Assembly: GCA_000002435.2 (NCBI GenBank) | Contig: CM018792.1 | Source of the DNA: Giardia intestinalis | Taxonomy: Eukaryota | Length of the DNA stretch: 64,000 nucleotides | Direction: 5' to 3' (one strand) | In this document: positions 1 to 51,098 of the stretch, piece by piece | Position numbering within the stretch: position 1 is the stretch's first letter | Layout of the letters: each line of letters starts with the position of its first letter | Position numbers and translations under genes: made by a program | The notes under the pieces: generated by a model | Told to the model about the DNA's origin: nothing | The model's input: the letters and a program-made list of their open reading frames with translations, nothing else | Databases searched by the model: none

Positions 1-1428
1 ACAGCCATCTATTCCCACATATGCCTTAGCAGCACTATCAGTGCCTGTTGATGTGCCTAGGGGGTTACTACATGCCAACACGGACTGCTGAGCATTGGTT
101 GCCCCCGGAACCAGGAAGTATCTATTGTTGGCTGCTTCTGTACAGACACCCTCCTTACTTGATGTCTTGCACATGAGGCTACCTGGTTCTGTATTAACCT
201 TGTAACAACCATTCATATACATAAAGTACCCTGTAGTACAAGACTCACAGACATGGTTGTTACAAGTATTACTTTGAGCCTCACTAGCACAGAGACCATC
301 TATAGGATACTTACTGCTATCCCCACAATAGGAACAGTAATGATGCTCTACTCCATCATTGTCGATCACTATAGCATCGCAGGCCCCTGCTGTCCCACCA
401 CACGCAGTATCATCTTCACAGGCCTTTGTACATGTGACCCCAGTTGAAGGTTCTCCACTGGGTCTGTAGTTCACCTTGCATTTTGTGCACTTAAATGTGC
501 CACTATTTGTGCACTCGGCACACCCCTCGATGCCACCTTTGGTTGTGTCACTACATGAGATGCACTCACCAGAGGAGCTATCCTTCAAGAAGTACCCTTG
601 CTTACATGTCAGGCACTTACTCGGATCTTCCTTCTTGGAGCATGTCGCACAGCCTGGAGCGCACGGATCGCATGTAAAGCCCCCGCTTCTGTTCTCGATG
701 TATCCCTCCAGGCATTCTGTGCAGGCTGGATTGGCACTCGCTGTCTTCGTGCAAGCCTTACAGCCAGCAATGCCTTTGTTCTTTTGTTCTGAATCCGACG
801 CTGCGGGATCACTGCACAAACGACACACGTTGTCCTCGGTCATAAAGAGACCGTTATCAGCTCCTTGACACCCGGCGTAGTTCTTCGCCACGCAGGTCGA
901 GGTTCCATCAAGGGTCGTCCTGGGGATCTTGGTTCCATCATCGCCACACTTACTGCACTTCGGCTTCTTGGTAGTCGAATCAACTTCACACTGGGTACAG
1001 CTGGGATCTATCGTACTACATTCCTTGCACGTTCTGGTAGCTTCGTCAGTATAGTGTGTGCCTGTGCATGAGCCAGCTACGACACAATCAGTCCCCTTCA
1101 GGTACTTCCCCGCTACGCAGAGGGTGCATGCATTCTGACCGGTTCCACTACACGTCTCGCAGTCGGTATGACATTTGACACATGCACCGTTACCATCTTT
1201 ATAGTACCCTGCTTGACACTCTGTACACGTGGCAGCTCCTGGACTACCACTTGGTTCCGTGCACTTGAGGCAGTTAGCCACTCCTTTGTTCTCATTCGCT
1301 CCCGTGGCATCATGGCACAGGATGCACTCCCCACCAGGGGTCACCTTCTCTGCCCTGTTCTGGAATATGTACTGACTATCTGTATTACAAGCAGTGCACA
1401 GTCCATTACTGGCCTTTGTACATATCAC
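1..1428 (-). CDS. Partial Giardia variant-specific surface protein (VSP) cassette. Its 5' end is inside the window at ~1428, beginning GTG-ATA-TGT = VICTKAS. The 3' part runs off the window start. It is a near-identical copy of 9323..10750.
   Basis: Translations of the overlapping ORFs in 1..1494 are identical to those of 9323..10816 (constant offset 9322). The protein is CXXC-rich and VSP-like. No ATG or signal peptide lies at its 5' end. Confidence 0.8.
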   Translation of the reverse strand, partial: MICTKASNGLCTACNTDSQYIFQNRAEKVTPGGECILCHDATGANENKGVANCLKCTEPSGSPGAATCTECQAGYYKDGNGACVKCHTDCETCSGTGQNACTLCVAGKYLKGTDCVVAGSCTGTHYTDEATRTCKECSTIDPSCTQCEVDSTTKKPKCSKCGDDGTKIPRTTLDGTSTCVAKNYAGCQGADNGLFMTEDNVCRLCSDPAASDSEQKNKGIAGCKACTKTASANPACTECLEGYIENRSGGFTCDPCAPGCATCSKKEDPSKCLTCKQGYFLKDSSSGECISCSDTTKGGIEGCAECTNSGTFKCTKCKVNYRPSGEPSTGVTCTKACEDDTACGGTAGACDAIVIDNDGVEHHYCSYCGDSSKYPIDGLCASEAQSNTCNNHVCESCTTGYFMYMNGCYKVNTEPGSLMCKTSSKEGVCTEAANNRYFLVPGATNAQQSVLACSNPLGTSTGTDSAAKAYVGIDGC

Positions 1429-1495
1429 ACTCCACTATCACACTATCACCCTCTATTACCCATTATCACACATTGTATAGCATTCACTACCTAAG
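1429..1495 (-). repeat. VSP inter-cassette spacer. It holds the extended poly(A) signal of the upstream unit (gene-strand TGA CTTAGGTAGTGAATGCTATACAATG) and then degenerate ~10-nt GTGATAGTG-like repeats.
   Basis: Read directly from the sequence. It is identical to spacer 10751..10817. AGTGAAT matches the Giardia AGTRAAY poly(A) consensus. Confidence 0.75.
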
Positions 1496-3229
1496 TCACG
1501 CCTTCCCCCTGCACACGAACCACCAGCAGAGGAAGCCCACGAGGCCCCCCACGACAGCGACCACAGCCACGGAGATCCCCGCGATGGCCCCCGCGGAGAG
1601 CCCGCTCCTGTTGGCGCCAGAGGACACACACTTACCATTGTCTAGACTGAAGCCACTGTTGCACTCCCCACATATATTATCCATCACACAGCTCTTACAA
1701 CCACCCACAGAGCACAGGACACACCCACTGCCGTCCCTGTTGGGCTTCCTATCACTGTCACAGGAGGTACAGACAGCGGGGGTCATACCAGCTGTTGTTA
1801 GAGCTGTCGGGGCTGTGCACTGGGAGCAGCCATCTACCCCCACATATGCCTTAGCAGTATTACCAGTGCCTGTCAGTGTGCCAAGGGGGTTACTACAAGC
1901 CAACACAGACTGATCAGTGTTGGATGCACCAGGCACTACGAAGTACCTATTGTTGGCTGCTTCTGTGCAGATCCCAGTATTACCTGCTGTCTTGCACATG
2001 AAGCTACCAGGAGCCTTCTGAGTGCTATAACAGCCACCCATATATAAGAAATATCCTGTAGTACAAGACTCACAGACATGGTTGTTACAAGTATTACTTT
2101 GAGCCTCACTAGCACAGAGACCATCTATAGGATACTTACTGCTATCCCCACAGTATGAACAATAGTGCTTTGTGGTGCCCTGATCATCTATTATCATGGC
2201 ATCACAGGCGCCAGAGGTACCACCGCAAGCCGTTGTATCCTCGCAGGTCTTTGTACATGTGACCCCAGTTGAAGGGGTACCGTTTTGCTTGTAGTTGGGC
2301 TTACAGGAGTTGCAGGTCAACGAGCCAGAGAAGGTGCACGTTGCACATCCATCGATGCCCCCCTGTGCATTATCACAAGCAACGCACTCACCAGTAGGAC
2401 CACTGCCTTTCATGAAGAATCCAGGCTTGCATTTAGTACACTGATTATTGCCAGTTTGAGTGCAGGTGGCACAATTATCACCACAGGCTGCGCATGTAAC
2501 CGTACCACTACCACTACTGTAGTATCCAGCTAAGCACTCTGAGCAGGTTGGATTGGCACTTGCTGTCTTCGTGCAAGCCTTACAGCCAGCAATGCCTTTG
2601 TTCTTTGGGTCTGATCCGCTGGTATCGCTGCACAAGACACACGCAGCATCACCATCTGCCTTGAAGTGATCAGCATCCTCGCAGCCAGAGCTTATATCGA
2701 CGCATGTCGTGGTGCCATCGATGGCCGTCTTCACCTTCTTATTGTTATTACAGGCGGTGCACTGGGGCTTACTGACAGTCGCATTGTACTTACAGGTAGT
2801 ACATGCTTGATCTATCGTACTGCATTCCTTGCACGTTCCAGACTCTGGGTCTGGATAAACGGTGCTCGTGCATTGATCACTAGTTACGCAAGTCTTATCA
2901 CCCTTCAAGTACTTCCCCTCTGGACACGATGTGCACTGGGCCGCCGATGTCTCACAGGTCAGACAAGTACCATCACACTTGCTACATGCCTGAAAGTCCT
3001 TGTAGTACCCTGCTTGACAGGCAGTACACGTGGCTGCCCCCTTATTACTATCTGACTTGGTGCATGTGGCGCAGTTAGCCACCCCCGTATACCCATCTGC
3101 TCCCGTGGCATCATGACAGAGTATGCACTCCCTTCCCTTCTCTGGTGCTGTAGCAGGGTTCTGGAATACGTACTTGTTATCTGTCTTACAAGCAGTGCAC
3201 AGTCCATTACTGGCTGCTGTGCATATCAC
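1496..3229 (-). CDS. VSP cassette (577 codons). It has the ...CRGKA C-terminus and a TM helix. It lacks an ATG start and a signal peptide: the first codon is GTG and stop codons lie upstream.
   Basis: The ORF is CXXC-rich, has a GGCY motif, and ends ...AIAGISVAVVAVVGGLVGFLCWWFVCRGKA*. I read codon 3227..3229 as cac, i.e. GTG on the coding strand. The in-frame upstream reading is TAG-TGG-GTG. Confidence 0.85.
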   Translation of the reverse strand: MICTAASNGLCTACKTDNKYVFQNPATAPEKGRECILCHDATGADGYTGVANCATCTKSDSNKGAATCTACQAGYYKDFQACSKCDGTCLTCETSAAQCTSCPEGKYLKGDKTCVTSDQCTSTVYPDPESGTCKECSTIDQACTTCKYNATVSKPQCTACNNNKKVKTAIDGTTTCVDISSGCEDADHFKADGDAACVLCSDTSGSDPKNKGIAGCKACTKTASANPTCSECLAGYYSSGSGTVTCAACGDNCATCTQTGNNQCTKCKPGFFMKGSGPTGECVACDNAQGGIDGCATCTFSGSLTCNSCKPNYKQNGTPSTGVTCTKTCEDTTACGGTSGACDAMIIDDQGTTKHYCSYCGDSSKYPIDGLCASEAQSNTCNNHVCESCTTGYFLYMGGCYSTQKAPGSFMCKTAGNTGICTEAANNRYFVVPGASNTDQSVLACSNPLGTLTGTGNTAKAYVGVDGCSQCTAPTALTTAGMTPAVCTSCDSDRKPNRDGSGCVLCSVGGCKSCVMDNICGECNSGFSLDNGKCVSSGANRSGLSAGAIAGISVAVVAVVGGLVGFLCWWFVCRGKA

Positions 3230-3265
3230 CCACTATCACACATTGTACAGCATTCACTACCCAAG
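3230..3265 (-). repeat. VSP inter-cassette spacer: poly(A) signal CTTGGGTAGTGAATGCTGTACAATG plus a short GTGATAGTG-like repeat.
   Basis: Seen in the sequence. It is homologous to the other spacers. Confidence 0.7.
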
Positions 3266-5032
3266 TCACGCCTTCCCCCTGCACACGAACCACCAGCAGA
3301 GGAAGCCCACGAGGCCCCCCACGACAGCGACCACAGCGACGGAGATCCCCGCGATGGCCCCCGTGGAGAGCCCGCTCCTGTTGGTACTCATAGACACACA
3401 GGAGGTCCCACTGCTGTCTAGACTGAAGCCACTGTTGCACTCCCCACACACATCATCCACCACACAGCTCTTGCAATCACCCACAGAGCACAGCACACAC
3501 CCGGTGCCATCCTTGTTGGGCTTCTTATCACTGTCACAGGAGGTGCATGTAGCGGCAGTCATACCACCATCAGACAGAGCTGTTGGGGCCGTGCATGCTG
3601 AGCAGTTGAGTACCCCAACGTATGCCTTAGCATTGTCTTGAGTACCTATTAGTGTGCCTAATGGGTTACCACATGCTAGTACAGACTGCTGAGCATTGGT
3701 TGCCTCTGGGACTACGAAGTATCTATTGTTGGCCGCTTCTGTGCATATCCCAGTATTACCTGCTGTCTTGCACATGAAGCTACCAGGAGCCTTCTGAGTG
3801 CTATAACAGCCACCCATGTATAGGAAGTAGTTGTTGGTGCACTGTGTACATACACCATTAGCACAAGTATTCCCAGCCTTTTGAGCCTCACTAGCACAGA
3901 GACCATCTATAGGAGCTTGTGAACTATCTCCACAATAGGAACAGTAGTGCTTTGTGGTGCCCTGATCATCTATTACGATGGCATCACAAGAGCCAGCTGT
4001 CCCCCCACAAGCCGTGGGGTCCTCGCAGGTCTTCTCTGTGCATGTATAGTTGTCTGAGGTTCCAGCGGGCTTCCTGTTAGGCTTGCACTTTGTGCACTTG
4101 AGAGGTCCTGTAGACTCCTTTGTGCACTCGGCACACCCATCGATGCCCCCCTGTGCATTATCACAAGCAACGCACTCACCAGTAGGACCATTGCCTTTCA
4201 TGAAGAACCCAGGCTTGCATGTATCACACTTATCATTGCCAGTTTGAGTGCAGGTGGCACAGTTAGCACCTGGACAAGCGGTGCATGTAACCGTACCACT
4301 ACCACTACTGTAGTATCCATCGAGGCACTCCGAGCAGGTCGGCGGTGTCGCCGAGTCCTTGGTACACTTCTTACACCCGGCAATGCCCTGGTAATTTGGA
4401 TCGGCTCCAGCTGAAACGGTACTGCATAAAACACATGTTTTGTCCTCCTTCATAAATAGGGCCTCGTCAGCGCCTTTACATCCAGCGTAGTCTTTTGTCA
4501 CGCACGTCGAGGTCCCATCAAGGGCCGTCCTGGGGATCTTACTGTTATCACAAGCTGTGCACTTCGGCTTCTTGGTAGTCGAATCAACCTCACACTGGGT
4601 ACATGCTTGATCTATCGTGTTGCAAGGAAGGCACTTCCCCGACTCCGGGTCAGCATAAGTGTTTCCAGTGCATCCATTATTATTCACGCATGACTTGTCA
4701 GTCTTCAGGTACTTCCCCTCTGGACACGATGTACACTGATTCGGACCACTTCCATCGCAGGTCAGACAAGACTGATCACACTGCATACATACCAGAGAGT
4801 CCTTGTAGTATCCATCTTGGCAGGTATCACACGTGGCAGCCCCTGGACTATTAGCTGGTGCCGTGCACTTGAGGCAATTAGCCACTCCCTTGTTCTCATT
4901 CGCTCCCGTGGCATCATGGCACAGGATGCACTCATTACCAGGGGTCACTGTCGTAGCCTTGTTCTGGAATATGTACTGGTTATCTACCTTACAAGCAGTG
5001 CACACTCCATCACTGGCTGCTGTGCATATCAC
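3266..5032 (-). CDS. VSP cassette (588 codons) ending CRGKA. It has no ATG or signal peptide and starts GTG-ATA-TGC = VICTAAS.
   Basis: Same architecture as 1496..3229. I read codon 5030..5032 as cac (GTG). Confidence 0.85.
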   Translation of the reverse strand: MICTAASDGVCTACKVDNQYIFQNKATTVTPGNECILCHDATGANENKGVANCLKCTAPANSPGAATCDTCQDGYYKDSLVCMQCDQSCLTCDGSGPNQCTSCPEGKYLKTDKSCVNNNGCTGNTYADPESGKCLPCNTIDQACTQCEVDSTTKKPKCTACDNSKIPRTALDGTSTCVTKDYAGCKGADEALFMKEDKTCVLCSTVSAGADPNYQGIAGCKKCTKDSATPPTCSECLDGYYSSGSGTVTCTACPGANCATCTQTGNDKCDTCKPGFFMKGNGPTGECVACDNAQGGIDGCAECTKESTGPLKCTKCKPNRKPAGTSDNYTCTEKTCEDPTACGGTAGSCDAIVIDDQGTTKHYCSYCGDSSQAPIDGLCASEAQKAGNTCANGVCTQCTNNYFLYMGGCYSTQKAPGSFMCKTAGNTGICTEAANNRYFVVPEATNAQQSVLACGNPLGTLIGTQDNAKAYVGVLNCSACTAPTALSDGGMTAATCTSCDSDKKPNKDGTGCVLCSVGDCKSCVVDDVCGECNSGFSLDSSGTSCVSMSTNRSGLSTGAIAGISVAVVAVVGGLVGFLCWWFVCRGKA

Positions 5033-5099
5033 ACTCCACTATCACACATTATCACACTATCACCTTCTATCACACATTGTACAGCATTCACTACCTAAG
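5033..5099 (-). repeat. VSP inter-cassette spacer: poly(A) signal CTTAGGTAGTGAATGCTGTACAATG plus about four degenerate decamer repeats (cactatcaca / cattatcaca on the plus strand).
   Basis: Seen in the sequence. Confidence 0.7.
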
Positions 5100-7070
5100 T
5101 CACGCCTTCCCCCTGCACACGAACCACCAGCAGAGGAAGCCCACGAGGCCCCCCACGACAGCGATGACAGCCACGGAGATCCCTGCTATGGCACCAGTAC
5201 TGAGGCCGCTTCTGTTGCCCCCGCTGGGCTTGGTGGACACGCACGCCTCACCCTCCAGCCTGTAGTCGTCCCCACACTGGCCGCACTTGTTCTCCTCGCT
5301 GCACCTGACGCACCCGTCGATACTGCAGGCGATGCACTGGGAGCCGTCCAGGCTGGGCCTCTGGTCTTTACTGGTACAGCCCTCGCACTTATCGCCTGCT
5401 CCACAGTGCGAACATCCACTAACGGTACATGCGAAGCACCCGCTCCCAGCCAGGTTGGGCTTGTTGTTGCCGCTACACGCTGTGCACGTGGCGGGGGCCA
5501 TGCCAGGAGCCTCTAGCTGTGTCGGGGCTGTACATGCTGAGCAGCCATCTACTCCCACATATGCCTTAGCAGTATCACCAGTGCCTGTCAGTGTGCCTAG
5601 GGGGTTGCTACAAGCCAACACGGACTGATCAGTGTTGGATGCCCCTGGGACCAGGAAGTACTTATTACTTGCTGCCTCTGTGCATATCCCATTACTACTT
5701 GATGCCTTGCACATGAAGCTACCTGGTTCTTGACCAACCTTATAACAGCCTCCCATATATAAGAAGTACCCTTGAGCACACTGTGTACATGTATGACTGT
5801 CACAGGTATTAGTTCCTTTCTTATTATTATCACTAGTACATATACCATCAATAGGGAACTTATTAGCCTCTCCACAGTAAGAACAATAGTGCTTTGTGGT
5901 GCCCTGATCATCTATTATCATGGCATCACAGGCGCCAGAGGTACCACCGCAAGCCGTTGTATCCTCGCAGGTCTTTGTACATGTGACCCCAGTTGAAGGG
6001 GTACCGTTTTGCTTGTAGTTGGGCTTACAGGAGTTGCAGGTCAACGAGCCAGAGAAGGTGCACGTTGCACATCCATCGATGCCCCCCTGTGCATTATCAC
6101 AAGCAACGCACTCACCAGTAGGACCATTGCCTTTCATGAAGAACCCAGGCTTGCATGTATCACACTTATCATTGCCAGTTTGAGTGCAGGTGGCACAGTT
6201 AGCACCTGGACAAGCGGTGCATGTAACCGTACCACTACCACTACTGTAGTATCCATCGAGGCACTCCGAGCAGGTCGGCGGTGTCGCCGAGTCCTTGGTA
6301 CACTTCTTACACCCGGCAATGCCCTGGTAATTTGGATCGGCTCCAGCTGAAACGGTACTGCATAAAACACATGTTTTGTCCTCCTTCATAAATAGGGCCT
6401 CGTCAGCGCCTTTACATCCAGCGTAGTCTTTTGTCACGCACGTCGAGGTCCCATCAAGGGCCGTCCTGGGGATCTTACTGTTATCACAAGCTGTGCACTT
6501 CGGCTTCTTGGTAGTCGAATCAACCTCACACTGGGTACATGCTTGATCTATCGTGTTGCAAGGAAGGCACTTCCCCGACTCCGGGTCAGCATAAGTGTTT
6601 CCAGTGCATCCATTATTATTCACGCATGACTTGTCAGTCTTCAGGTACTTCCCCTCTGGACACGATGTGCAATGATTCGGACCACTTCCATCGCAGGTCA
6701 GACAGGACGGATCACACTTCTCACATGCATCACCCTTCTTAATGTATCCATCTTGGCAGACAGTGCATGTGGCCGGTCCGCTAGTGCCCGTGTGGGAGCA
6801 TTCTGAGCATCCAGCGACTCCCATGACCCCGTTTCTATCTATAGTATCGGAGCACAAGATGCACTCACTACCCTTCTCTGATGGTGTAACTGGGTTCTTG
6901 AACAGGCCGTTAGCTGTATTACAAGCAGTGCACAGTCCTCCCTCAGCCTTTGTGCATATCTCACTGCCAGGGTGTGCATCCTTGTTGTAGCACCCGCCCA
7001 TGAAGAGGAGTCTCATACTATCACTATCACCCCCACACCACATAGCACTATCACTATCACTGTACAGCAT
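5100..7070 (-). CDS. VSP cassette (656 codons) ending CRGKA. Its apparent ATG is the ATG embedded in the upstream unit's poly(A) signal (AGTGAATGCTG). Its N-terminal extension translates the spacer repeats (MLYSDSDSAMWCGGDSDSM...) and then a partial GGCY module. There is no signal peptide.
   Basis: The translation MLYSDSDS... corresponds to the GTGATAGTG repeats read in frame. SEICTKAEGGLCTAC aligns with the start point of the other cassettes. Confidence 0.8.
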   Translation of the reverse strand: MLYSDSDSAMWCGGDSDSMRLLFMGGCYNKDAHPGSEICTKAEGGLCTACNTANGLFKNPVTPSEKGSECILCSDTIDRNGVMGVAGCSECSHTGTSGPATCTVCQDGYIKKGDACEKCDPSCLTCDGSGPNHCTSCPEGKYLKTDKSCVNNNGCTGNTYADPESGKCLPCNTIDQACTQCEVDSTTKKPKCTACDNSKIPRTALDGTSTCVTKDYAGCKGADEALFMKEDKTCVLCSTVSAGADPNYQGIAGCKKCTKDSATPPTCSECLDGYYSSGSGTVTCTACPGANCATCTQTGNDKCDTCKPGFFMKGNGPTGECVACDNAQGGIDGCATCTFSGSLTCNSCKPNYKQNGTPSTGVTCTKTCEDTTACGGTSGACDAMIIDDQGTTKHYCSYCGEANKFPIDGICTSDNNKKGTNTCDSHTCTQCAQGYFLYMGGCYKVGQEPGSFMCKASSSNGICTEAASNKYFLVPGASNTDQSVLACSNPLGTLTGTGDTAKAYVGVDGCSACTAPTQLEAPGMAPATCTACSGNNKPNLAGSGCFACTVSGCSHCGAGDKCEGCTSKDQRPSLDGSQCIACSIDGCVRCSEENKCGQCGDDYRLEGEACVSTKPSGGNRSGLSTGAIAGISVAVIAVVGGLVGFLCWWFVCRGKA

Positions 7071-7082
7071 TCACTACCTAAG
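7071..7082 (-). repeat. Minimal 12-nt spacer between the stop of unit 7083..8870 and the apparent ATG of unit 5100..7070. It is part of the conserved poly(A)-signal block.
   Basis: Seen in the sequence. My own base counting is off by one around here, so I used the track coordinates. Confidence 0.5.
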
Positions 7083-8870
7083 TCACGCCTTCCCCCTGCA
7101 CAGGAACCACCAGCAGAGGAAGCCCACGAGGCCCCCCACGACAGCGACCACGGCGACGGCAATGCCCGCGATGGCGCCCGTGGAGAGCCCGCTCCTGTTG
7201 GTGCTCGTAGACACACAGGAGGTCCCACTGCTGTCAGGGCTGTATCCACTGTTGCACACACAGACAGAGTTATCATCAGTGGAGTTGCTGGGGCAGCCAT
7301 CCACGCATGACTTCCTCCCAGGGCTCACCTTCTTACCACTACTACACACCTCGCACATGTCATCCCTGTTGCAGTGGGAGCATCCACTAATGGCACATGA
7401 GAAGCACCCACTGCCGTCCCTGTTGGGCTTCCTATCACTGTCACAGGAGGTACACACAGCAGCAGCCATACCACCCTCAGTCAGAGCTGTTGGGGCTGTG
7501 CACTGTGAGCAGCCATCCACCCCCACGTATGCCTTAGCAGTATCACCAGTGCCTGTCAGTGTGCCTAGGGGGTTGCTACAAGCCAACACGGACTGATCAG
7601 TGTTGGATGCCCCTGGGACCAGGAAGTACTTATTACTTGCTGCCTCTGTGCATATCCCATTACTACTTGATGCCTTGCACATGAAGCTACCTGGTTCTTG
7701 ACCAACCTTATAACAGCCTCCCATATATAAGAAGTACCCTTGAGCACACTGTGTACATGTATGACTGTTACAAGTATTACCTTTCTTATCAGTAGCACAG
7801 ATGCCATCAATTGGTACCTTAGTACTCTCCCCACAGTATGAGCAATAGTGAAGCTCCTTTCCATCAGCACCGATCACTATGGCATCACAAGAGCCAGCTG
7901 TCCCCCCGCATGCAGTCTCATCTTCACAGGTCTTTGTACACGTATAGTCATCCCCTGCATCTCCATTAAGCTGTTTCTTATAGTTAGGCTTACAGTCAGT
8001 ACATTTGAATCCACCACTGTTAGAGCATGCACTGCACCCATCGCGGCCACCATTTGCTGTATCACTACATGAGATGCACTCACCAGAGGAGCTATCCTTC
8101 AAGAAGTACCCTTGCTTGCAGGTCGTGCATTGGTCTTTTGTATCCTTAGCACAGGTGGCACAGTTCTCACCACAGGCTGTGCATGTAGCGGTATTACCAC
8201 TTGCACTATTGTAATATCCATCGAGGCACTTTGTACATGTAGTTTTAGAGGAGCAGGTATCACAACCTAGAATCCCACCATTTTTAGTATCACCACATGG
8301 AACACAAGCTTTTGGAGATTGTTCAAGGAAGTGCGTATTGCCACTTGTGCACTCTGCCTCCGCAACACACGTCGCTGACCCATCGGGGTTCACCTTAAGA
8401 AGCAGGTTTCCTCCACTATTACACCCAGTGCACACAGGCTTCTGAAGAGTGTCGCTGTATGCACACGTAGCACATTCATTGACACTTGTGTCCGTGCAGG
8501 CCTTGCATTGGCCTGTTTTTGGGTCTGCATACTTACCATTGTCACATTGATTAGCATCCACACACTTGTCAGCCTTCAGGAACTTCCCCTCAACGCAGGC
8601 GGTACACTGAGTCGGAGTATCAGCTGAGCAGGCAGAGCAGCCCTCTCCGCACTTCACACATGCACTGTCCTTCTTAACGAACCCATCTTGACAGGCAGTA
8701 CATGTGACAGGTCCTGCACTCTGTGGTGCCTGACACTGTGCGCAGTTAGCCACCCCCGTATATCCATCTGCTCCCTTGATATCATGACAGAGGATGCACT
8801 CACTACCCTTCTCTGGTGTTGCAGCAGGGTTCTTGAACAGGCCGTTATCTGCCTTACAAGTAGTGCACAC
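7083..8870 (-). CDS. VSP cassette (595 codons) ending CRGKA. It has no ATG or signal peptide. The stop-to-stop frame begins TAG-TGG-AGT-GAG-ATA = *WSEICTKAEGGVCTTCK (to ~8903).
   Basis: CXXC-rich VSP-like protein. I read codon 8868..8870 as cac (GTG). A stop codon lies at ~8904..8906 upstream. Confidence 0.85.
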   Translation of the reverse strand: MCTTCKADNGLFKNPAATPEKGSECILCHDIKGADGYTGVANCAQCQAPQSAGPVTCTACQDGFVKKDSACVKCGEGCSACSADTPTQCTACVEGKFLKADKCVDANQCDNGKYADPKTGQCKACTDTSVNECATCAYSDTLQKPVCTGCNSGGNLLLKVNPDGSATCVAEAECTSGNTHFLEQSPKACVPCGDTKNGGILGCDTCSSKTTCTKCLDGYYNSASGNTATCTACGENCATCAKDTKDQCTTCKQGYFLKDSSSGECISCSDTANGGRDGCSACSNSGGFKCTDCKPNYKKQLNGDAGDDYTCTKTCEDETACGGTAGSCDAIVIGADGKELHYCSYCGESTKVPIDGICATDKKGNTCNSHTCTQCAQGYFLYMGGCYKVGQEPGSFMCKASSSNGICTEAASNKYFLVPGASNTDQSVLACSNPLGTLTGTGDTAKAYVGVDGCSQCTAPTALTEGGMAAAVCTSCDSDRKPNRDGSGCFSCAISGCSHCNRDDMCEVCSSGKKVSPGRKSCVDGCPSNSTDDNSVCVCNSGYSPDSSGTSCVSTSTNRSGLSTGAIAGIAVAVVAVVGGLVGFLCWWFLCRGKA

Positions 8871-8992
8871 TCCTCCCTCAGCCTTTGTACATATCTCACT
8901 CCACTATCATACTATCACACACTATCACCCATTATCACCCTCTATCACACATTATCACCCATTATCATCACTCATAGCATTCACTACCTAAG
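8871..8992 (-). repeat. Longest VSP inter-cassette spacer (~120 nt). It holds the poly(A) signal CTTAGGTAGTGAATGCTATGAG and about eight degenerate decamer repeats (cattatcacc / ctctatcaca / cactatcata on the plus strand).
   Basis: Seen in the sequence. Confidence 0.75.
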
Positions 8993-10750
8993 TCACGCCT
9001 TCCCTCTACACACGAACCACCAGCAGAGGAAGCCCACGAGGCCCCCCACGACAGCGACCACAGCCACGGAGATCCCCGCGATGGCCCCCGCGGAGAGCCC
9101 GCTCCTGTTGGCGCCAGAGGACACACACTTACCATTGTCTAGACTGAAGCCACTGTTGCACTCCCCACACACACCGTCCACCACACAGCTCTTGCAGTTG
9201 GTGTCAGAGCATACTACACACCCACTGCCATCCTTGTTGGGCTTTTTATCACTGTCACAGGAGGTGCACACAGCGGGGGTCATACCACCATCAGACAGAC
9301 CTGCTGGGGCTGTACATGCTGAACAGCCATCTATTCCCACATATGCCTTAGCAGCACTATCAGTGCCTGTTGATGTGCCTAGGGGGTTACTACATGCCAA
9401 CACGGACTGCTGAGCATTGGTTGCCCCCGGAACCAGGAAGTATCTATTGTTGGCTGCTTCTGTACAGACACCCTCCTTACTTGATGTCTTGCACATGAGG
9501 CTACCTGGTTCTGTATTAACCTTGTAACAACCATTCATATACATAAAGTACCCTGTAGTACAAGACTCACAGACATGGTTGTTACAAGTATTACTTTGAG
9601 CCTCACTAGCACAGAGACCATCTATAGGATACTTACTGCTATCCCCACAATAGGAACAGTAATGATGCTCTACTCCATCATTGTCGATCACTATAGCATC
9701 GCAGGCCCCTGCTGTCCCACCACACGCAGTATCATCTTCACAGGCCTTTGTACATGTGACCCCAGTTGAAGGTTCTCCACTGGGTCTGTAGTTCACCTTG
9801 CATTTTGTGCACTTAAATGTGCCACTATTTGTGCACTCGGCACACCCCTCGATGCCACCTTTGGTTGTGTCACTACATGAGATGCACTCACCAGAGGAGC
9901 TATCCTTCAAGAAGTACCCTTGCTTACATGTCAGGCACTTACTCGGATCTTCCTTCTTGGAGCATGTCGCACAGCCTGGAGCGCACGGATCGCATGTAAA
10001 GCCCCCGCTTCTGTTCTCGATGTATCCCTCCAGGCATTCTGTGCAGGCTGGATTGGCACTCGCTGTCTTCGTGCAAGCCTTACAGCCAGCAATGCCTTTG
10101 TTCTTTTGTTCTGAATCCGACGCTGCGGGATCACTGCACAAACGACACACGTTGTCCTCGGTCATAAAGAGACCGTTATCAGCTCCTTGACACCCGGCGT
10201 AGTTCTTCGCCACGCAGGTCGAGGTTCCATCAAGGGTCGTCCTGGGGATCTTGGTTCCATCATCGCCACACTTACTGCACTTCGGCTTCTTGGTAGTCGA
10301 ATCAACTTCACACTGGGTACAGCTGGGATCTATCGTACTACATTCCTTGCACGTTCTGGTAGCTTCGTCAGTATAGTGTGTGCCTGTGCATGAGCCAGCT
10401 ACGACACAATCAGTCCCCTTCAGGTACTTCCCCGCTACGCAGAGGGTGCATGCATTCTGACCGGTTCCACTACACGTCTCGCAGTCGGTATGACATTTGA
10501 CACATGCACCGTTACCATCTTTATAGTACCCTGCTTGACACTCTGTACACGTGGCAGCTCCTGGACTACCACTTGGTTCCGTGCACTTGAGGCAGTTAGC
10601 CACTCCTTTGTTCTCATTCGCTCCCGTGGCATCATGGCACAGGATGCACTCCCCACCAGGGGTCACCTTCTCTGCCCTGTTCTGGAATATGTACTGACTA
10701 TCTGTATTACAAGCAGTGCACAGTCCATTACTGGCCTTTGTACATATCAC
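8993..10750 (-). CDS. VSP cassette (585 codons) ending CRGKA. It has no ATG or signal peptide and reads *WS-VICTKASNGLCTAC.
   Basis: I read codon 10748..10750 as cac (GTG). An in-frame stop lies at ~10757..10759. Its 5' 1428 nt is duplicated at 1..1428. Confidence 0.85.
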   Translation of the reverse strand: MICTKASNGLCTACNTDSQYIFQNRAEKVTPGGECILCHDATGANENKGVANCLKCTEPSGSPGAATCTECQAGYYKDGNGACVKCHTDCETCSGTGQNACTLCVAGKYLKGTDCVVAGSCTGTHYTDEATRTCKECSTIDPSCTQCEVDSTTKKPKCSKCGDDGTKIPRTTLDGTSTCVAKNYAGCQGADNGLFMTEDNVCRLCSDPAASDSEQKNKGIAGCKACTKTASANPACTECLEGYIENRSGGFTCDPCAPGCATCSKKEDPSKCLTCKQGYFLKDSSSGECISCSDTTKGGIEGCAECTNSGTFKCTKCKVNYRPSGEPSTGVTCTKACEDDTACGGTAGACDAIVIDNDGVEHHYCSYCGDSSKYPIDGLCASEAQSNTCNNHVCESCTTGYFMYMNGCYKVNTEPGSLMCKTSSKEGVCTEAANNRYFLVPGATNAQQSVLACSNPLGTSTGTDSAAKAYVGIDGCSACTAPAGLSDGGMTPAVCTSCDSDKKPNKDGSGCVVCSDTNCKSCVVDGVCGECNSGFSLDNGKCVSSGANRSGLSAGAIAGISVAVVAVVGGLVGFLCWWFVCRGKA

Positions 10751-10817
10751 ACTCCACTATCACACTATCACCCTCTATTACCCATTATCACACATTGTAT
10801 AGCATTCACTACCTAAG
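10751..10817 (-). repeat. VSP inter-cassette spacer, identical to 1429..1495.
   Basis: Seen in the sequence. Confidence 0.75.
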
Positions 10818-12887
10818 TCACGCCTTCCCCCTGCACACGAACCACCAGCAGAGGAAGCCCACGAGGCCCCCCACGACAGCGACCACAGCCACGGAGATCC
10901 CCGCGATGGCCCCCGCGGAGAGCCCGCTCCTGTTGGCGCCAGAGGACACACACTTACCATTGTCTAGACTGAAGCCACTGTTGCACTCCCCACATATATT
11001 ATCCATCACACAGCTCTTACAACCACCCACAGAGCACAGGACACACCCACTGCCGTCCCTGTTGGGCTTCTTACTACTGTCACAGGAGGTACAGACAGCG
11101 GGGGCCATACCACCATCAGACAGAGCTGCTGGGGCTGTACACTGGGAGCAGCCCTCTACTCCCACATATGCCTTAGCAGTATCACCAGTGCCTGTCAGTG
11201 TGCCTAGGGGGTTGCTACAAGCCAACACAGACTGATCAGTGTTGGATGCACCAGGCACTACGAAGTACCTATTGTTGGCTGCTTCTGTGCAGATCCCAGT
11301 ATTACCTGCTGTCTTGCACATGAAGCTACCAGGAGCCTTCTGAGTGCTATAACAGCCACCCATGTATAGGAAGTAGTTGTTGGTGCACTGTGTACATACA
11401 CCATTAGCACAAGTATTCCCAGCCTTTTGAGCCTCACTAGCACAGAGACCATCTATAGGAGCTTGTGAACTATCTCCACAATAGGAACAGTAGTGCTTTG
11501 TGGTGCCCTGATCATCTATTACGATGGCATCACAAGAGCCAGCTGTCCCCCCACAAGCCGTGGGGTCCTCGCAGGTCTTCTCTGTGCATGTATAGTTGTC
11601 TGAGGTTCCAGCGGGCTTCCTGTTAGGCTTGCACTTTGTGCACTTGAGAGGTCCTGTAGACTCCTTTGTGCACTCGGCACACCCATCGATGCCCCCCTGT
11701 GCATTATCACAAGCAACGCACTCACCAGTAGGACCATTGCCTTTCATGAAGAATCCAGGCTTGCATTTAGTGCACTTATCATTGCCAGCTTGAGTGCAGG
11801 TGGCACAGTTGGCACCACAGGCTTCACATGTAACCGTACCACCATTTCCACTATTGTAATATCCGTCGAGGCACTCCGAGCAGGTCGGCTTGGCTCCGTT
11901 CTTCTTACATGTTTTACACCCAGGCGTCCCTTTATTAGCTTCTAAACTTTCACTATCATCACTACACAATATGCACTTGGTGCTACCATCATTTAGAAAG
12001 TGGGATCCGTCAACGTTACTTGTTGCGCACCCATTTGCATCGACACAGGTTGTCGTGCCATCGATGGCCGTCTTCACCATCTTCTGACCACCGCAGTTAG
12101 TGCACTTCGGCTTCTTGGTAGTCGAATCAACCTCACACTGGGTACATGCTTGATCTATCGTGTTGCAAGGAAGGCACTTCCCCGACTCCGGGTCAGCATA
12201 AGTGTTTCCAGTGCATCCATTATTATTCACGCATGACTTGTCACCCTTCAAGTACTTCCCCTCTGGACACGATGTGCACTGGGCCGCCGATGTCTCACAG
12301 GTCAGACAAGTACCATCACACTTGCTACATGCCTGAAAGTCCTTGTAGTACCCTGCTTGACAGGCAGTACACGTGGCTGCCCCCTTATTACTGTCTGACT
12401 TGGTACACTGTGCGCAGTTAGCCACCCCCGTATATCCATCTGCTCCATTGATATCGGAGCACAGTATGCACTCACTACCCTTCTCTGGTGTTGCAGCAGG
12501 GTTCTTGAACAGGCCGTTAGCTGTCTTACACTCAGTGCACAGTCCTCCCTCAGCCTTTGTGCATATCTCGCTGCCGGGCCCGTCGGTTGTCTTGTAGCAC
12601 CCGCCCATGAAGAGGAAGTACCCGTCGCCGCACTTCTCGCAGGTTGCTGTCATCTTGTCAAGGGCAGCCCCGCCCGCTTTGGTGCACCCGGCTGCCGCGG
12701 CCTGGGGGGAGCCGAAGGGTCGGCAGAAGCCGTCGACCGGGACGCCCCCGGTCTTGCACTCGGTGCAGATCTCGGCTGACCCGACCGTCTCGCACTTGCC
12801 GGTCTGGCAGGTCGCGGCGTGGTCTCCGTCTGGCTGGCAGGCCGCCATGAGCGCGCTCGCTACGAACAGGGGTATCAGTTGGAACAT
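10818..12887 (-). CDS. Complete VSP gene (~689 aa). It has an ATG in an Inr-like context (CTCTAATGTTCC) and a signal peptide (MFQLIPLFVASALMAACQ). It has VSP repeats, a TM helix and a CRGKA tail. It is the head of the array.
   Basis: The track ORF 10818..13076 starts at a GTG. The first in-frame ATG, at 12887..12885, is followed by a hydrophobic leader. Everything downstream of the leader is VSP-like. Confidence 0.85.
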   Translation of the reverse strand: MFQLIPLFVASALMAACQPDGDHAATCQTGKCETVGSAEICTECKTGGVPVDGFCRPFGSPQAAAAGCTKAGGAALDKMTATCEKCGDGYFLFMGGCYKTTDGPGSEICTKAEGGLCTECKTANGLFKNPAATPEKGSECILCSDINGADGYTGVANCAQCTKSDSNKGAATCTACQAGYYKDFQACSKCDGTCLTCETSAAQCTSCPEGKYLKGDKSCVNNNGCTGNTYADPESGKCLPCNTIDQACTQCEVDSTTKKPKCTNCGGQKMVKTAIDGTTTCVDANGCATSNVDGSHFLNDGSTKCILCSDDSESLEANKGTPGCKTCKKNGAKPTCSECLDGYYNSGNGGTVTCEACGANCATCTQAGNDKCTKCKPGFFMKGNGPTGECVACDNAQGGIDGCAECTKESTGPLKCTKCKPNRKPAGTSDNYTCTEKTCEDPTACGGTAGSCDAIVIDDQGTTKHYCSYCGDSSQAPIDGLCASEAQKAGNTCANGVCTQCTNNYFLYMGGCYSTQKAPGSFMCKTAGNTGICTEAANNRYFVVPGASNTDQSVLACSNPLGTLTGTGDTAKAYVGVEGCSQCTAPAALSDGGMAPAVCTSCDSSKKPNRDGSGCVLCSVGGCKSCVMDNICGECNSGFSLDNGKCVSSGANRSGLSAGAIAGISVAVVAVVGGLVGFLCWWFVCRGKA

Positions 12888-12900
12888 TAGAGGGTCCCCT
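12880..12900 (-). promoter_or_regulatory. Initiator-like element around the VSP start codon (gene-strand GACCCTCTAATGTTCC, matching the Giardia VSP Inr PyAATGTT).
   Basis: Read directly from the sequence. The Inr consensus is established knowledge for Giardia VSP genes. Confidence 0.45.
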
Positions 12901-15675
12901 GCTGTGGCCTCTACCCCGTCTGTGGCTACCCAGCACGGCACACGGGGGGAGCGCTGTTCCACCCCTGCCTTGGAGGCCCCTGTCTCGACTCGGCCCACAG
13001 CACCAGAGCGTGGTGGTCTTCCACTCTTGGGCCCCGCACAGCCCGTCTCTGTGCCCAAGCGACTCACCCCAGGCACTCACACGACGGAGACCCCCGCGGC
13101 AGTGCTCCGGCAGGCGGGCTGCGCTGATGTCCGGCCCGGCGCAGAGCCCAGAAGGCTCAGAGGTCATGGCTCCTTGATGACTGCCATGTCGTTCTCCTCG
13201 CTCGGTTGACATGCACCCTGCTAGAAGGCTCCCACTTACTCGAGCTCATGCCCCCCTGTGGTGACTCTGCTCGACCATCAGCGAGGGTCCCGGTCCTCCT
13301 CCCAATAGGCCGGCCTCAGGTCCCCCGTGATCTGCCAGACCGGGCAGAGTGATCGCGGCGCCCGTCAGAGCCTGAGCCGACAGGCCCGCAGTGAAGTGCG
13401 CCTGGATCCACGGAGATCGTTCACTCCCCCAGTGGGCCGCAGCTTCCCCTGCCCTGCTGACAGTCCTCCAGCGAGGGCATGTCGTTGTGGGGCAGTCTTC
13501 TCGTCCTGCCGTGCACACAGGGCCCGACTGGTGACTTTCGGACAGTCCCGATGGTATGCCTGAAGCCCCGCCACGGCAGAGGGGGCAGCACACGGGGCGG
13601 CCCCTACGCTGCTACAGATTGCAATGGCAGCAGAGACCCCCTGCCCGAGAGGCCCGTGCATTGGCTGTGGCGGCCATCCACTCCATGCGGGCCCGGTGCG
13701 GCGCTCCTGGAGAGCCCTTGCCTCTGGTGGTGCTGACAGGGCTCCCGAGGGACCAAGGCGTCAGACGAGGGACGGGCCGAGCAGGACTCCCAGCCCACAT
13801 GCAGATGTCCCTGCCGTGTGCCCGGTCCTGTAGAGACCCGAGCCGCTGGAGGTGTCCCTCGGCATCCGGCCCCCTGCTGTGCCAGTCGGTGCAGGGGAGC
13901 AGCGTACAGGGCCCTCATGGGCAGTCTCCTCTCACAGACAGGGCACCAGGGGTCTCAGCAACCGACCGGCCGATGCAAGGGACAGGCTCTCCTGCCACGA
14001 CGGCGCTCTGCTGCTAGGAGGGTCTGGCGGACAAGCTATCAGCACACGCACTCTCCTGGGCCGCCTCGGGGCACTCCAGCGTGGCCAGCGGCTTGCGGAT
14101 CAGTCTGGTGTCCCGGAGCGTGTGAGGAAGATGAGGGGTTTACTCTGGGCTGCCGTCTTGTCGAGGGCAGTCCCGTGCATGAAGCTCTGAACTCATGTGA
14201 TGCCGGTCCAGAGGCACCTCTGACGAGAGCATTAACAAGAGAAGCGTTGAGTAGTCAATGGTCCATCCTGTAAGCAAGCTGCTAGGTGCGAAGGCATTGA
14301 ATCTGTGTGCGGTCGCATGGCCACACATCACGACCCACAACGTCATAGCGCACCGCATAGCTGGCACACCCCAAGGGTGTATGGAGACAGTAGACCAGTA
14401 GTTTAATGGATCAAGGCAGAGACTGTGCCACAAAGCGTGGAAAGACGGGTTCCACAGAAGCTGGTAAGCTACGATCACCAGTCTTCTATAATAGTGAGTG
14501 ATGTCAACAATCTCTTCCCGAAGGAGCTTACAGATCTATCTCTAATCAGCTAACTGGGGGATAAAGAAAAACAACTAGGGTCTACCGTGAGGCACCCTGC
14601 CACAGTTGATCATGGCAGCCACCGATGAATGCACTCCATTCCACAGAATAATAGACACCCGGAGTCCTTTCAATCTGATCGAGTCTAAGTCCACAGCAGA
14701 CCGCCCGGCCCGAGAGCCTACTGTTGCTGGGCGAGGGGCGTCAGTGGACCGTAGCCTTCCATAGACTGGGATAGGTGACCAGTGTCGGGGCTCGTCAACC
14801 ATGATGAATCGGCTGTGATCGGGTATTTCCCTGCCGCATAACTGGGACATGCAGAACAGCTCTGGGCAGAGCGAGAAATTGACTGGAGTGGCGGGGCTGA
14901 ATCCCTCGATTGATGCCAATCTCTGACTACGATATCGGGCGACTCATCGATCTTTTTAGCGATACTAGCCGAGAGTTACAGCTGTCTTTACTTAAGCTAT
15001 CTTTGCGCTTCACTATGCTGATGTTGCTTGTTGTACAGTAAGTCTGTGCTTGCTTAATCTAGATGCCTTTGCACAATAATACCGTAGATGCGCTTAACGA
15101 TTACCCATCAATGCAACTTTTTGCTGAGCTGATTGCATATTATAAAAGTCAATTGTGTCTAAGAAGCTAGCGCCTCAGTAAACCAAAGGAAGGCATATAC
15201 GATGTTAAAAAGTGCCTCTCTAACGTACAATTGACACCTTAATATTCTTCTGATTGTCAATGGCTATAAAGTGAATCTCGTCCGTAGTAAATTCTTAGAG
15301 GAGTTCACAGCTTCTTTGTTATAGCGGACTTGCACACAAATGCACCTCACTTGATGGTCAACACATTTCAATCAGATCAATCAAAAAAATTATTACAATT
15401 CTAGCCAAGTAAAAATCCAATCTTGAGTAAAGATTGAGTTCGATGGCGGCGTGGCAGTCTACATTATAACATCCCTAGGATTTACTGCTGAAAATTGCTG
15501 AGCAATGGCCAATGTGGATACAATTAGATCGTATTAAATAATTGCAATCACTTTAACTGTACATCGCTTGGGGCAGTAAGCAGTTCAGCAGTGCTGGTTT
15601 AGCTTTAGCAAACAAATAAGGTTTGGAAAGACGGTGACTTTATTTTGAATCGATGTTTTTAATAACTTTTATCCT

Positions 15676-16494
15676 ATGAGCGGGTACTGGACTGGAACTA
15701 CAAAGATACTGCTTCTGGTGGGGATTCCATGCATTATTACCACATATACGATAGCCGTTGTTCCACGCAGTCTCATTGGCGTTATTAACGTACTAAACTT
15801 GGAATATAGCTTCAGTTGGAAACTACACTTTTTCTATGAGTTTAGAGCATGGTTTGGAACAGTTATAGTGCTCTCTATTTTAGTTCTTTACTTCTTTGTG
15901 TCCCATTTGATGCTATGTTGCAGCTGCAGTAAAACTCGGAATGTGGTTGTCTATTGCTATCTAGCGTCAATTGGAACTGGGTATTGTGCAATTGTAGATC
16001 TATTTTCCTGCATAGTTACGCCATTTGTTAACCTCGAATCTGCCTATATTTCTTTATTACTCATAGGAGATCTATCCAAATACGCCACATTGAGTGTCGG
16101 GATTGCCTGGCTCTTTACTGTCACTGCAGGAGTACTTCTCCTAAATACCGAGTCAGCTTGCTTGCGAGCCCTTACGCCGACCATTGGCTCACTAATTTCA
16201 TTTGGACTTCCTTTATTCATCGTATTGATAAATGGTGTCGGGCACTACAATGTGTATACAACTCCACATTATATTATAGCCAGCTTTGTTCTAGCATTTC
16301 TAAGTCTGGTCTGCTATTTGCTCGCATATTTTGTGGAATTTCAAAAGACAAAGATTCTGAACAAGTATGATGTATTTGGTGGTCCTTCCACTTCGTTTGG
16401 GAGAACCCCGGCCTCCTCTACTACGATGCTAAGCACTGCCCACGATTCATCTACGTATCGAGGCTACTCAAATGATGCCTATTTGTATGCTTAG
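15676..16494 (+). CDS. Hypothetical multi-pass membrane protein (272 aa).
   Basis: The ORF has about seven hydrophobic segments. An AT-rich tract precedes it. I recognise no family. Confidence 0.5.
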   Translation: MSGYWTGTTKILLLVGIPCIITTYTIAVVPRSLIGVINVLNLEYSFSWKLHFFYEFRAWFGTVIVLSILVLYFFVSHLMLCCSCSKTRNVVVYCYLASIGTGYCAIVDLFSCIVTPFVNLESAYISLLLIGDLSKYATLSVGIAWLFTVTAGVLLLNTESACLRALTPTIGSLISFGLPLFIVLINGVGHYNVYTTPHYIIASFVLAFLSLVCYLLAYFVEFQKTKILNKYDVFGGPSTSFGRTPASSTTMLSTAHDSSTYRGYSNDAYLYA

Positions 16495-50700: not shown

Positions 50701-51098
50701 GCAAAGTGATCGATAATGACATCATCAAAAAGCTCAAACGCTGAAAAGGTGACCGAGTGGGATGAGTCAACTAACCCAGTTACCTCTGTGAGCAAGGCCT
50801 CAAGTATACCGGCCTGATAAGAAGAAAGCCTGGTCTTGCCCGTCCCCTGGGTCCCCATTACCAGGATTGTGGACGACTCCCCACTGGACAGTGTTCCCAC
50901 GGTGGTCCGAGCAAGATTGTCCACAAATGCCTTGCTTTCATATGCTTCCACGATTGTGCTCATAGAGAATTGCTTCCGCCGTCCATCCTTGCCGCAGAGA
51001 AAAAGAGACGTGCCATCTACCTCTAGATATCTGGGTCGCGGGTCGGAAAGAACAGCGATTGCTTTAGTGGCGTACATTTTTAAAACATCGCCTGCCAC
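47721..51098 (-). CDS. P-loop coiled-coil protein with a divergent, kinesin-like N-terminal domain that lacks canonical switch motifs.
   Basis: ILVMGTQGTGKT resembles kinesin AYGQTGSGKT. VTFSAFELFDDVIIDHF resembles VSYLEIYNE..DLL. TVTLIDSTPG sits where DLAGSE would be. I do not see SSRSH. The C-terminal half is a long heptad-rich coiled coil. Confidence 0.4.
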   Translation of the reverse strand: MAGDVLKMYATKAIAVLSDPRPRYLEVDGTSLFLCGKDGRRKQFSMSTIVEAYESKAFVDNLARTTVGTLSSGESSTILVMGTQGTGKTRLSSYQAGILEALLTEVTGLVDSSHSVTFSAFELFDDVIIDHFAPEDDFESTIDNMKITKVQLADKAQSLTLLEYVRNLSKNYTERETTGVAEPAPSSSTMCFKIQLYNQANGAISTVTLIDSTPGPVLHALTTGLLDIASSGQTVEFFISANPIPTAPITQLVLPILARARPVLIGMFNGSSESGQYAETLLAMLHICKTSLETTKVARNRMHPPVNPPIEVTDLIDSELQKALDATIRSRPSISSPLLPVAQDLGTKDDDMKPDMGMLYEDKHSNKYTKTSEPHYDGSYPSFNSTMHEQKTPPQVPQPRPAGFVSPASTSLRPEVELFDQPPSITHVVDPAMYGVQEVNELTGQAYVHDAHSPVYTMSTDAFPAALASSGVDNTAHIISVKHNIVSLDPVVETNISPSVFNSLHAESALATSNTGLSEDQVSLQTVGNVVISPKTQLSDASRQQETAAMLANRFLETLRANARLDAPKAKMTDKTSEQDDVVSTIDSLALDLPQPSSQSDLQALKDKLTTATQALERATLYKDELLARITDLECQGQEALLVSELHMMAAQKRATDIRKIISASLGTTTTAPGSLAKSAIPVADIKRLLNSHEEDISQLEKKLYAEIKGQAEEAIASALNYNKQAASRSLEDAQVKSLVNELRKAVDARLKNEIKLRQLQRQERELSAKMLLFKEIEKKHTVLKQERSGKVSEVRQIKESHKKLQHQNLTSQAELDSLKKQLASATATLQEIKLDVSSLRVAFQNLERAVADHGSETVVFPAYQTNVTSVPLEQATADFMRRSAESGSAFAIHAIHEMQKPTEQPGTREESLALLDHVLGLVEDVLEAIRKKGTVAGLTTDERRVKDCMDDIQACLTKAIRARTTGPSADNYITDYNKYTVTLPQTAAELPPAPAAQEVPVSSIVDTASRMISGAIKATNTEDKDDTMQGYQTGYTMAGLERLRVMAPDVARVAELGIVSAQEAVKAAALDHEPKIATPIHSNQPIGAQIRTSLTDTLQAVQSVEKGIEERLKRLMSGYKENFS

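Follow-up and report, generated by a model that had tools for sequence, protein, structure and literature searches.

The 64,000-nucleotide stretch of the Giardia intestinalis contig CM018792.1 analyzed here (hereafter the window, to which all coordinates refer) carries on its minus strand, at positions 1..12887, an array of genes for variant-specific surface proteins (VSPs). The listing of open reading frames (ORFs) resolves this array into seven head-to-tail units, namely a head gene and six downstream units, U2 to U7, which have neither an initiator nor a leader and, in five of the six cases, no early ATG of any kind. The units are as follows:

10818..12887, minus strand: head VSP gene, 689 amino acids, recognized by its ORF, initiator, leader and exact protein match; Pfam VSP score 150.6 bits.
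8993..10756, minus strand: U2, a start-less VSP pseudogene (ψVSP) of 587 codons, opening TAG TGG AGT GTG ATA TGT; first in-frame methionine at codon 197.
7083..8903, minus strand: U3, a start-less ψVSP of 606 codons, opening TAG TGG AGT GAG ATA TGT; first in-frame methionine at codon 393.
5100..7070, minus strand: U4, a ψVSP with a different junction, opening with TGA directly followed by ATG in the preceding poly(A) signal; absent as a protein from the collection.
3266..5038, minus strand: U5, a start-less ψVSP of 590 codons; it has a 471-nt tract in common with the head gene and a 616-nt tract in common with U4.
1496..3232, minus strand: U6, a start-less ψVSP of 578 codons, with a shorter spacer, opening TAG TGG GTG ATA TGC.
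1..1434, minus strand: U7, a start-less ψVSP cut by the window edge; identical to U2 over its visible part.

All six complete units (the head gene and U2-U6) match the Pfam VSP family, PF03302, with 115-151 bits against a curated cut-off of 31.4 bits. The units contain 26-29 CXXC motifs each and about 12% cysteine, and every complete one terminates in a transmembrane (TM) helix and a CRGKA tail, in the form ...GFLCWWF(V/L)CRGKA. The initial annotation of this DNA had described the downstream units as otherwise ordinary VSPs with a CXXC body, a TM helix and a CRGKA tail, and for the complete units we can confirm this; its further claim of a GGCY motif in every unit fails for U2 and U7, both of which have NGCY. 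The units recur at a spacing of 1.77-1.98 kb, and superimposed on this periodicity is an exact copy of 1,748 nt that runs across a unit boundary, 1..1748 being identical to 9323..11070, so that partial U7, its spacer and the 3' end of U6 correspond to U2, the spacer of U2 and the 3'-terminal part of the head gene. Such a copy implies that the array has a higher-order periodicity of 9,322 nt, which runs past the left edge of the window. As U7 is itself cut by that edge, the array must extend leftward, and the earlier count of five or six downstream units, of which six are visible, is a minimum. The exactness of the copy further indicates that the array was copied very recently. On its right the array is flanked by housekeeping genes, the adjoining one (15676..16491) being an exact match to the WB C6 protein GL50803_0095451.

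Over its full length the head protein (10821..12887, minus strand) matches KAE8304460.1 / XP_037902103.1 exactly, a protein annotated as a VSP of G. intestinalis WB C6, and it is the sole annotated protein of the array. The window thus belongs to the chromosome-scale WB reference genome, and a G. muris origin was rejected both for these exact matches and for the CRGKA tails, as G. muris VSPs have GCRGK. None of the unit ORFs has a protein record in the collection, where the head gene and its neighbor are both present; this is consistent with their annotation as pseudogenes. An older partial deposit, UniParc UPI000017B5CF, spans 677 residues without the first 12 of the head protein and is identical to it at 675 of 677 positions; the two differences, D441N and a G to A change in the TM helix, match none of the units.

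The signals that distinguish the head gene lie at and upstream of its 5' end:

12883..12889, minus strand: initiator TAATGTT around the head start codon, located by a regular-expression scan with the motif definition of Adam et al. 2010.
12837..12887, minus strand: signal-peptide codons of the head gene, MFQLIPLFVASALMAAC, located by Kyte-Doolittle hydropathy.
12570..14200, minus strand: GC-rich 5' module, comprising about 1.3 kb of upstream sequence, the leader and the first 106 codons; GC 0.67-0.68, GC content at third codon positions (GC3) 0.87.

The TAATGTT at the head start codon is the only PyAATGTT found by the scan on the minus strand within 1..13300. Likewise, a hydrophobic leader follows the head ATG (12887) alone: the best nine-residue Kyte-Doolittle mean of MFQLIPLFVASALMAAC is 2.34, over LFVASALMA, and among the other candidate starts of the array none that leads in frame into a VSP body attains this value. 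The signal peptide was called by this hydropathy measure rather than by SignalP. The initial annotation had proposed a single expression-competent gene at 10818..12887 followed by silent, 5'-truncated units, and the single initiator and leader bear it out; the head gene is predicted to be the sole expression-competent unit of the array. According to the definitions of Xu et al. 2020 and Rodriguez-Walker et al. 2022, a bona fide VSP requires an N-terminal signal peptide, and in this array only the head gene possesses one by hydropathy.

The downstream units, in contrast to the head gene, begin inside the coding sequence. An in-frame TAG directly precedes the open frames of U2, U3, U5, U6 and U7, which start at the homologous S-(E/V)-I-C-T position and have their first in-frame methionine at codon 84 to 393. 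An earlier claim that all units have the same break point and no ATG thus stands for these five and fails for U4, while the opening TAG TGG AGT GTG ATA TGY ascribed to every unit is found in U2, U5 and U7, is altered to GAG for GTG in U3 and occurs without the AGT codon in U6. The frame of U4 instead opens at the TGA and ATG lying within the poly(A) signal of U3, reads through the spacer, and includes 16 additional codons homologous to the head gene (LLFMGGCYNKDAHPGS; LLFMGGCY...GS), which place its break 16 codons farther upstream. Its first 24 codons contain four in-frame ATGs (7070, 7043, 7016 and 7001), associated with neither an initiator nor a leader (maximum hydropathy 1.27). At the nucleotide level about 25 nt of this 5' end (7001..7070) are identical to the head gene at its FLFMGGCY codons (within 12590..12640), upstream of the common break point.

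The hydropathy of the candidate starts upholds the proposal that no unit encodes a secretory leader, and a search for a spliced or alternative N-terminus likewise recovered none. No Giardia-type acceptor or branch motif is present in any spacer, nor is there a GTATGT in the head leader region; the out-of-frame ATG-initiated ORFs near the junctions are short and not leader-like; and read-through from a preceding unit is stopped by frame shifts or by TAG and TGA codons. Because the boundary of the unit falls some 106 codons into the gene, the copies after the first are devoid of the initiator, the start codon, the signal peptide and the first cysteine-rich segment and, by their sequence, cannot make a secreted VSP by themselves. 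The array displays the complete set of features by which ψVSPs and linear arrays are recognized, namely a VSP body with CRGKA, no leader or proper start, short spacers, no downstream initiator, and a poly(A) signal. An assembly artefact was considered and judged unlikely, as the start-less architecture has been reported from a Sanger assembly with directed sequencing and again from a PacBio assembly.

Conceivably, translation of the inner units could nevertheless begin at internal or non-canonical starts, with the products reaching the membrane despite having no N-terminal leader. The frames of the units are intact and under constraint, U4 offers the early in-frame ATGs listed above, and Li et al. 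2013 (PMC3656445) found that the sequence upstream of the C-terminal motifs was not needed for membrane targeting of episomal VSP constructs. However, the units have no initiator and no leader, five of the six have no methionine before codon 84, none is annotated as a protein, and the localizations of Li et al. have been disputed on methodological grounds (10.1101/2022.03.07.483299). We consider this route exceedingly unlikely.

The intervals between the units are strikingly uniform:

10757..10820, minus strand: representative spacer, with a stop codon, the extended VSP poly(A) signal ACTTAGGTAGTGAAT, and then short GTGATARNG-type repeats.
8904..8995, 7071..7085, 5039..5102, 3233..3268 and 1435..1498, minus strand: equivalent spacer sequences.

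The extended poly(A) signal ACTTAGGTAGTGAAT, followed by a short GTGATA-type microsatellite, is found after all six complete units, and only 0-90 nt separate a stop codon from the open frame of the next unit. The spacer repeats form arrays of period 6-10 (TRF), and their resemblance (GTGATAGTG...) to the coding sequence at the break point (AGTGAGATATG) suggests that microhomology may have played a part at the junction. The junction of U4 is a second type within the array and possibly the older one; there are hints that the common shorter junction came about secondarily, by deletion of the sequence between GTGATAGT repeats in the spacer and AGTGAGATATG. The shared break point was initially taken as the mark of a cassette system, but this argument does not survive: the break point is accounted for by common ancestry, through tandem duplication of a single truncated unit, rather than by repeated independent truncation, and U4 shows that the junction is not of one type.

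The truncated units begin where the GC-rich module of the head gene ends, the equivalent of their break point being GAGATATGC at 12569. At this point GC3 drops from 0.87 in the head 5' module to 0.53 in the head body, and the remainder of the head gene and all the units have a GC content of about 0.52 and a GC3 of 0.49-0.55. Owing to this change in composition the head gene has the look of two parts, a separate 5' expression module and a body of array type joined to it. The compositional block (12601..14200) amounts to about 1.6 kb at 64-69% GC, against 45-52% elsewhere, and covers the first ~100 codons of the head gene and a gene-free upstream region; the long ORFs within it (12658..13212, minus strand; 13556..14017 and 13818..14273, plus strand) look like artefacts of composition.

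In other isolates, all short-read contigs reached through GL50803_0095451 stop about 1.1-1.55 kb upstream, in the GC-rich block and before the head gene. The two contigs reached through proteins resembling the head 5' module both stop about 50-100 nt past that module, and neither route yielded an array for comparison. The G. intestinalis contig AHGT01000095.1 of GCA_000498715.1 (10001..10486 of the locus) has at its end a short ORF resembling the N-terminal segment of the head protein, and a second such ORF lies at the end of an ENA metagenome scaffold (10001..10228 of the locus). Both are 71-74% identical to that segment (...CQTGKCETVG.AEICTEC..GGVP...), continue into Pro/Arg-rich, seemingly frame-shifted sequence and reside in different gene neighborhoods. 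Their occurrence indicates that the GC-rich 5' module is present at other loci and in other isolates.

Sequence exchange was examined in a codon alignment of the head gene and U2-U6 (15 pairs) by sliding-window identity and by 10,000 permutations of the polymorphic sites. Along the head gene, identity to single units flips abruptly from about 50% to 100% and back, and the closest unit is first U3/U4, next U6 and then U4/U5, followed, after a unique stretch, by U5 and finally by U6/U2. Thus, alignment columns 0-150 of the head gene resemble U3/U4; columns 180-300 are 100% identical to U6; columns 335-481 show zero mismatches at polymorphic sites to both U4 and U5; columns 850-1320 (471 nt) show none to U5; and there are none to U6 from column 1544 to the end, nor to U2 from column 1622. 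At the 3' end, the last 253 nt of U6 including its stop codon (1496..1748) are identical to the head gene. The units are equally mosaic among themselves; for example, no polymorphic site differs between U4 and U5 along 616 nt, or between U4 and U6 along 258 nt. In 14 of the 15 pairs the longest run of matching polymorphic sites exceeded those of all 10,000 permutations (p<1e-4). The pattern is the imprint of recent segmental conversion or unequal crossover across the entire array, including the head gene. Two hallmarks of a conversion system, silent copies without expression signals next to one expression locus and segmental exchange, are both apparent at this locus.

This raises the question of whether the array drives antigenic switching, in which case programmed gene conversion of the Borrelia vls, Neisseria pilS or trypanosome VSG type would frequently copy units into the head gene in the course of an infection. 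The architecture is indeed like that of vls and pilS, with the constant 5' region at the expressed locus only and adjacent silent copies without promoter, start or leader, and the head gene is a mosaic of unit-type tracts. However, the silent units are just as mosaic among themselves, as undirected exchange predicts, and neither a break-inducing nor a targeting element was seen in the vicinity of the head gene. The literature, moreover, attributes switching in Giardia to epigenetic and RNA interference (RNAi) control among more than 130 intact genes, and the near-identity of the head protein to the older, independent deposit argues against rapid replacement. Programmed switching at this locus is in our estimate highly unlikely. 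The initial reading of the units as donor cassettes is thus supported to the extent that the head gene and the units exchange tracts as it predicts, but not as a switching mechanism, the evidence fitting a slow diversification of the repertoire.

The start-less units include no stop codons and no frameshifts in 3,495 codons. As 4.2% of all single-base changes in them would give a stop, the neutral expectation is about 443×d new stops, and their absence limits the neutral divergence since the last purifying filter to less than about 0.7%. The pairwise divergence among the units is nonetheless 18-34%, which indicates that it built up while the sequences were translated. The ratio of nonsynonymous to synonymous substitution rates (dN/dS) is 0.31-0.44 (about 0.33), with dS reaching about 1.0. 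Of the 72 cysteine columns 68 do not vary, as against 172 invariant columns among the 489 others. Hence, two explanations present themselves: a continuing passage of sequence back and forth between the array and expressed genes, or a recent import of the units from functional genes.

These observations bear on the simplest interpretation, namely that the units are non-functional debris of unequal crossing-over whose frames are open because they are young or have been passively homogenized by conversion. Such an origin agrees with the shared break point, which needs only one founding truncation followed by amplification, and with the exact duplications of at least 1.75 kb, a sign of very recent copying; the units carry either a pseudogene annotation or none, and the ψVSPs of G. 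muris are essentially untranscribed (PMC7641422). It sits poorly with the uninterrupted frames despite such divergence, and with the low dN/dS and nearly invariant cysteines: neutral copies at a dS of about 1 would be full of stops, so the sequence must at minimum keep passing through selected, translated genes. On balance we regard pure debris as unlikely, though deserving of serious consideration.

The same constraint speaks against a role of the units in feeding RNAi, whereby sterile sense, antisense or read-through RNA from them would give rise to double-stranded RNA and small RNAs that help silence homologous VSP mRNAs. In favor of this proposal, RNAi components have been linked to the control of VSPs and antisense reads reportedly exceed sense reads for most VSPs; long identical tracts are common to the units and the head gene, and the spacers are moderately AT-rich. 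Yet a source of RNA has no need of intact frames, of conserved cysteines or of a dN/dS near 0.33, read-through would be limited by the poly(A) signal that each unit retains, and the G. muris ψVSPs are reported as essentially non-transcribed (PMC7641422). It therefore appears very unlikely that this is what the units are for.

In light of the above, we favor, with reasonable though not high confidence, the interpretation that this is a WB VSP linear array in which a silent tandem archive exchanges tracts with one expressible head gene behind a fixed 5' module. We are highly confident of the structure and the exchange, while for a selected role of the start-less units as a reservoir we consider the chances to be even. 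Such an array would have originated when a unit of ~1.8-2.0 kb, extending from the S-(E/V)-I-C-T codons through the CRGKA stop and the VSP-specific poly(A) signal to the short GTGATA-type microsatellite, was amplified by tandem duplication or unequal crossing-over. The first copy retains the GC-rich 5' module with its upstream region, initiator, leader and first 106 codons. Downstream of the break point, tracts are exchanged among the units and with the head gene via segmental gene conversion or unequal crossover, and the start-less units would serve as a silent archive from which new VSP bodies may be assembled behind the constant expressible 5' module. The archive would widen the antigen repertoire slowly, over evolutionary or population time, and VSP switching itself most likely stays under RNAi and epigenetic control of intact genes. 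A stronger version, which we consider rather improbable, is that selection keeps the start-less units translation-ready because their copying into the head gene, or into other intact VSPs, is frequent enough to matter within infections, so that recombinational diversification would operate alongside RNAi and epigenetic switching. In this version the GC-rich 5' module would be a constant slot for expression, and conversion would reach upstream no farther than the S-E-I-C-T break point.

Several points weigh against the archive interpretation. The mosaic is evidence of exchange and not of donation into the head gene, as a single genome gives no direction of transfer. A central segment of the head gene (alignment columns ~450-700) has no close partner among the visible units, and protein searches with the head N-terminus and this unique segment gave only a few partial matches of 51-74% identity and no donor, in a word-index search that also missed the query's own cluster. 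The head gene is, judging by the older deposit, not being rewritten quickly. Further, the differences inside near-identical tracts have a pN/pS of about 0.33, a value contaminated by tract edges, and the signal of constraint could be inherited from functional ancestors or imported by conversion, and need not mean selection as a reservoir.

Every element of this finding is already published for the G. intestinalis WB genome. According to Adam et al. 2010 (BMC Genomics 11:424, PMC2996952), more than half of the WB vsp genes lie in linear arrays with spacers averaging about 60 bp; the first gene of an array often has an upstream region and a PyAatgTT initiator, which is found on no downstream member; and the downstream members were proposed to be recombination cassettes for the first gene, with evidence of recombination from GENECONV. 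Xu et al. 2020 (Sci Data 7:38) annotated start-less ψVSP arrays and counted 133 VSPs and 208 ψVSPs. Rodriguez-Walker et al. 2022 (10.1101/2022.03.07.483299) regarded incomplete VSPs as a sequence reservoir and defined the extended poly(A) signal. The earlier suggestion that the start-less structure might be undescribed is therefore superseded, and the proposed comparison with the G. intestinalis and G. muris arrays finds a matching architecture in Adam et al. 2010, Xu et al. 2020 and the G. muris genome paper. The present locus is one instance of the WB linear and ψVSP arrays, from the same organism and assembly, with no difference in kind. What is added for this array are the exact junctions, the second junction type of U4, the tract-level mosaicism of the head gene, the dN/dS and stop statistics and the GC3 discontinuity, none of which we found stated in the parts consulted of Adam et al. 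2010 and Xu et al. 2020.

Comparable systems in other lineages differ in informative ways. In G. muris, silent telomeric arrays of tandem ψVSPs without signal peptides are inferred to undergo recombination or gene conversion with intact VSPs (Microb Genom 6:mgen000402), and have been likened to the trypanosome and Pneumocystis reservoirs (PMC7641422). There, however, the VSP tail is GCRGK rather than CRGKA, and almost all arrays are adjacent to telomeres with the intact genes elsewhere, whereas the present array has an intact gene at its head and housekeeping genes on its right. The Neisseria pilE/pilS and Borrelia vlsE/vls systems similarly combine an expressed locus bearing promoter, start, leader and constant 5' region with adjacent silent copies that lack these, and segmental, non-reciprocal exchange gives rise to mosaics. 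In these bacterial systems, unlike here, unidirectional conversion at high frequency has been demonstrated, together with dedicated cis elements, namely a G4 at pilE and an inverted repeat at vls; Giardia can also switch among more than 130 further intact VSP genes. The VSG pseudogenes of Trypanosoma brucei are likewise incomplete antigen genes that form large silent arrays and that serve, or have been proposed to serve, in the formation of mosaic genes. In contrast to the present units, which are uniformly 5'-truncated and otherwise intact, these are mostly damaged by stops or frameshifts, and VSG expression needs a telomeric expression site, whereas here the expressible copy is the first gene of the array.

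Some further features of the window may be recorded. Plus-strand antisense ORFs of 165-241 amino acids (1416..1913, 3123..3641, 4833..5516, 7000..7596, 8688..9413 and 10738..11235) sit opposite the TM/CRGKA end of each unit and the spacer, and have ...HAFPLHTNHQQRKPTRPPTTATTATEIPAMAP... in common; they are probably a by-product of the stop-poor antisense strand of Cys/Gly/Ala-rich coding sequence. Outside the array, two stretches of the head VSP align at about 30% identity with a minus-strand ORF of 1,125 amino acids (47721..51098; tblastn E ~2e-11). This ORF has no match to Pfam VSP and probably encodes a high-cysteine membrane protein (HCMP/CRMP), not a VSP. No RNA genes were recovered from the window by Rfam or tRNA scans.

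The idea that such arrays may donate sequence has been in print since 2010. To it this locus adds no new concept but a clear worked example, with a head gene that is a patchwork of unit tracts and units that are intact though unable to start translation. If ψVSP arrays truly donate to expressible VSPs, the effective repertoire of Giardia would be larger and more plastic than its ~133-136 intact genes, and such plasticity would bear on chronic infection and on VSP-based vaccines.

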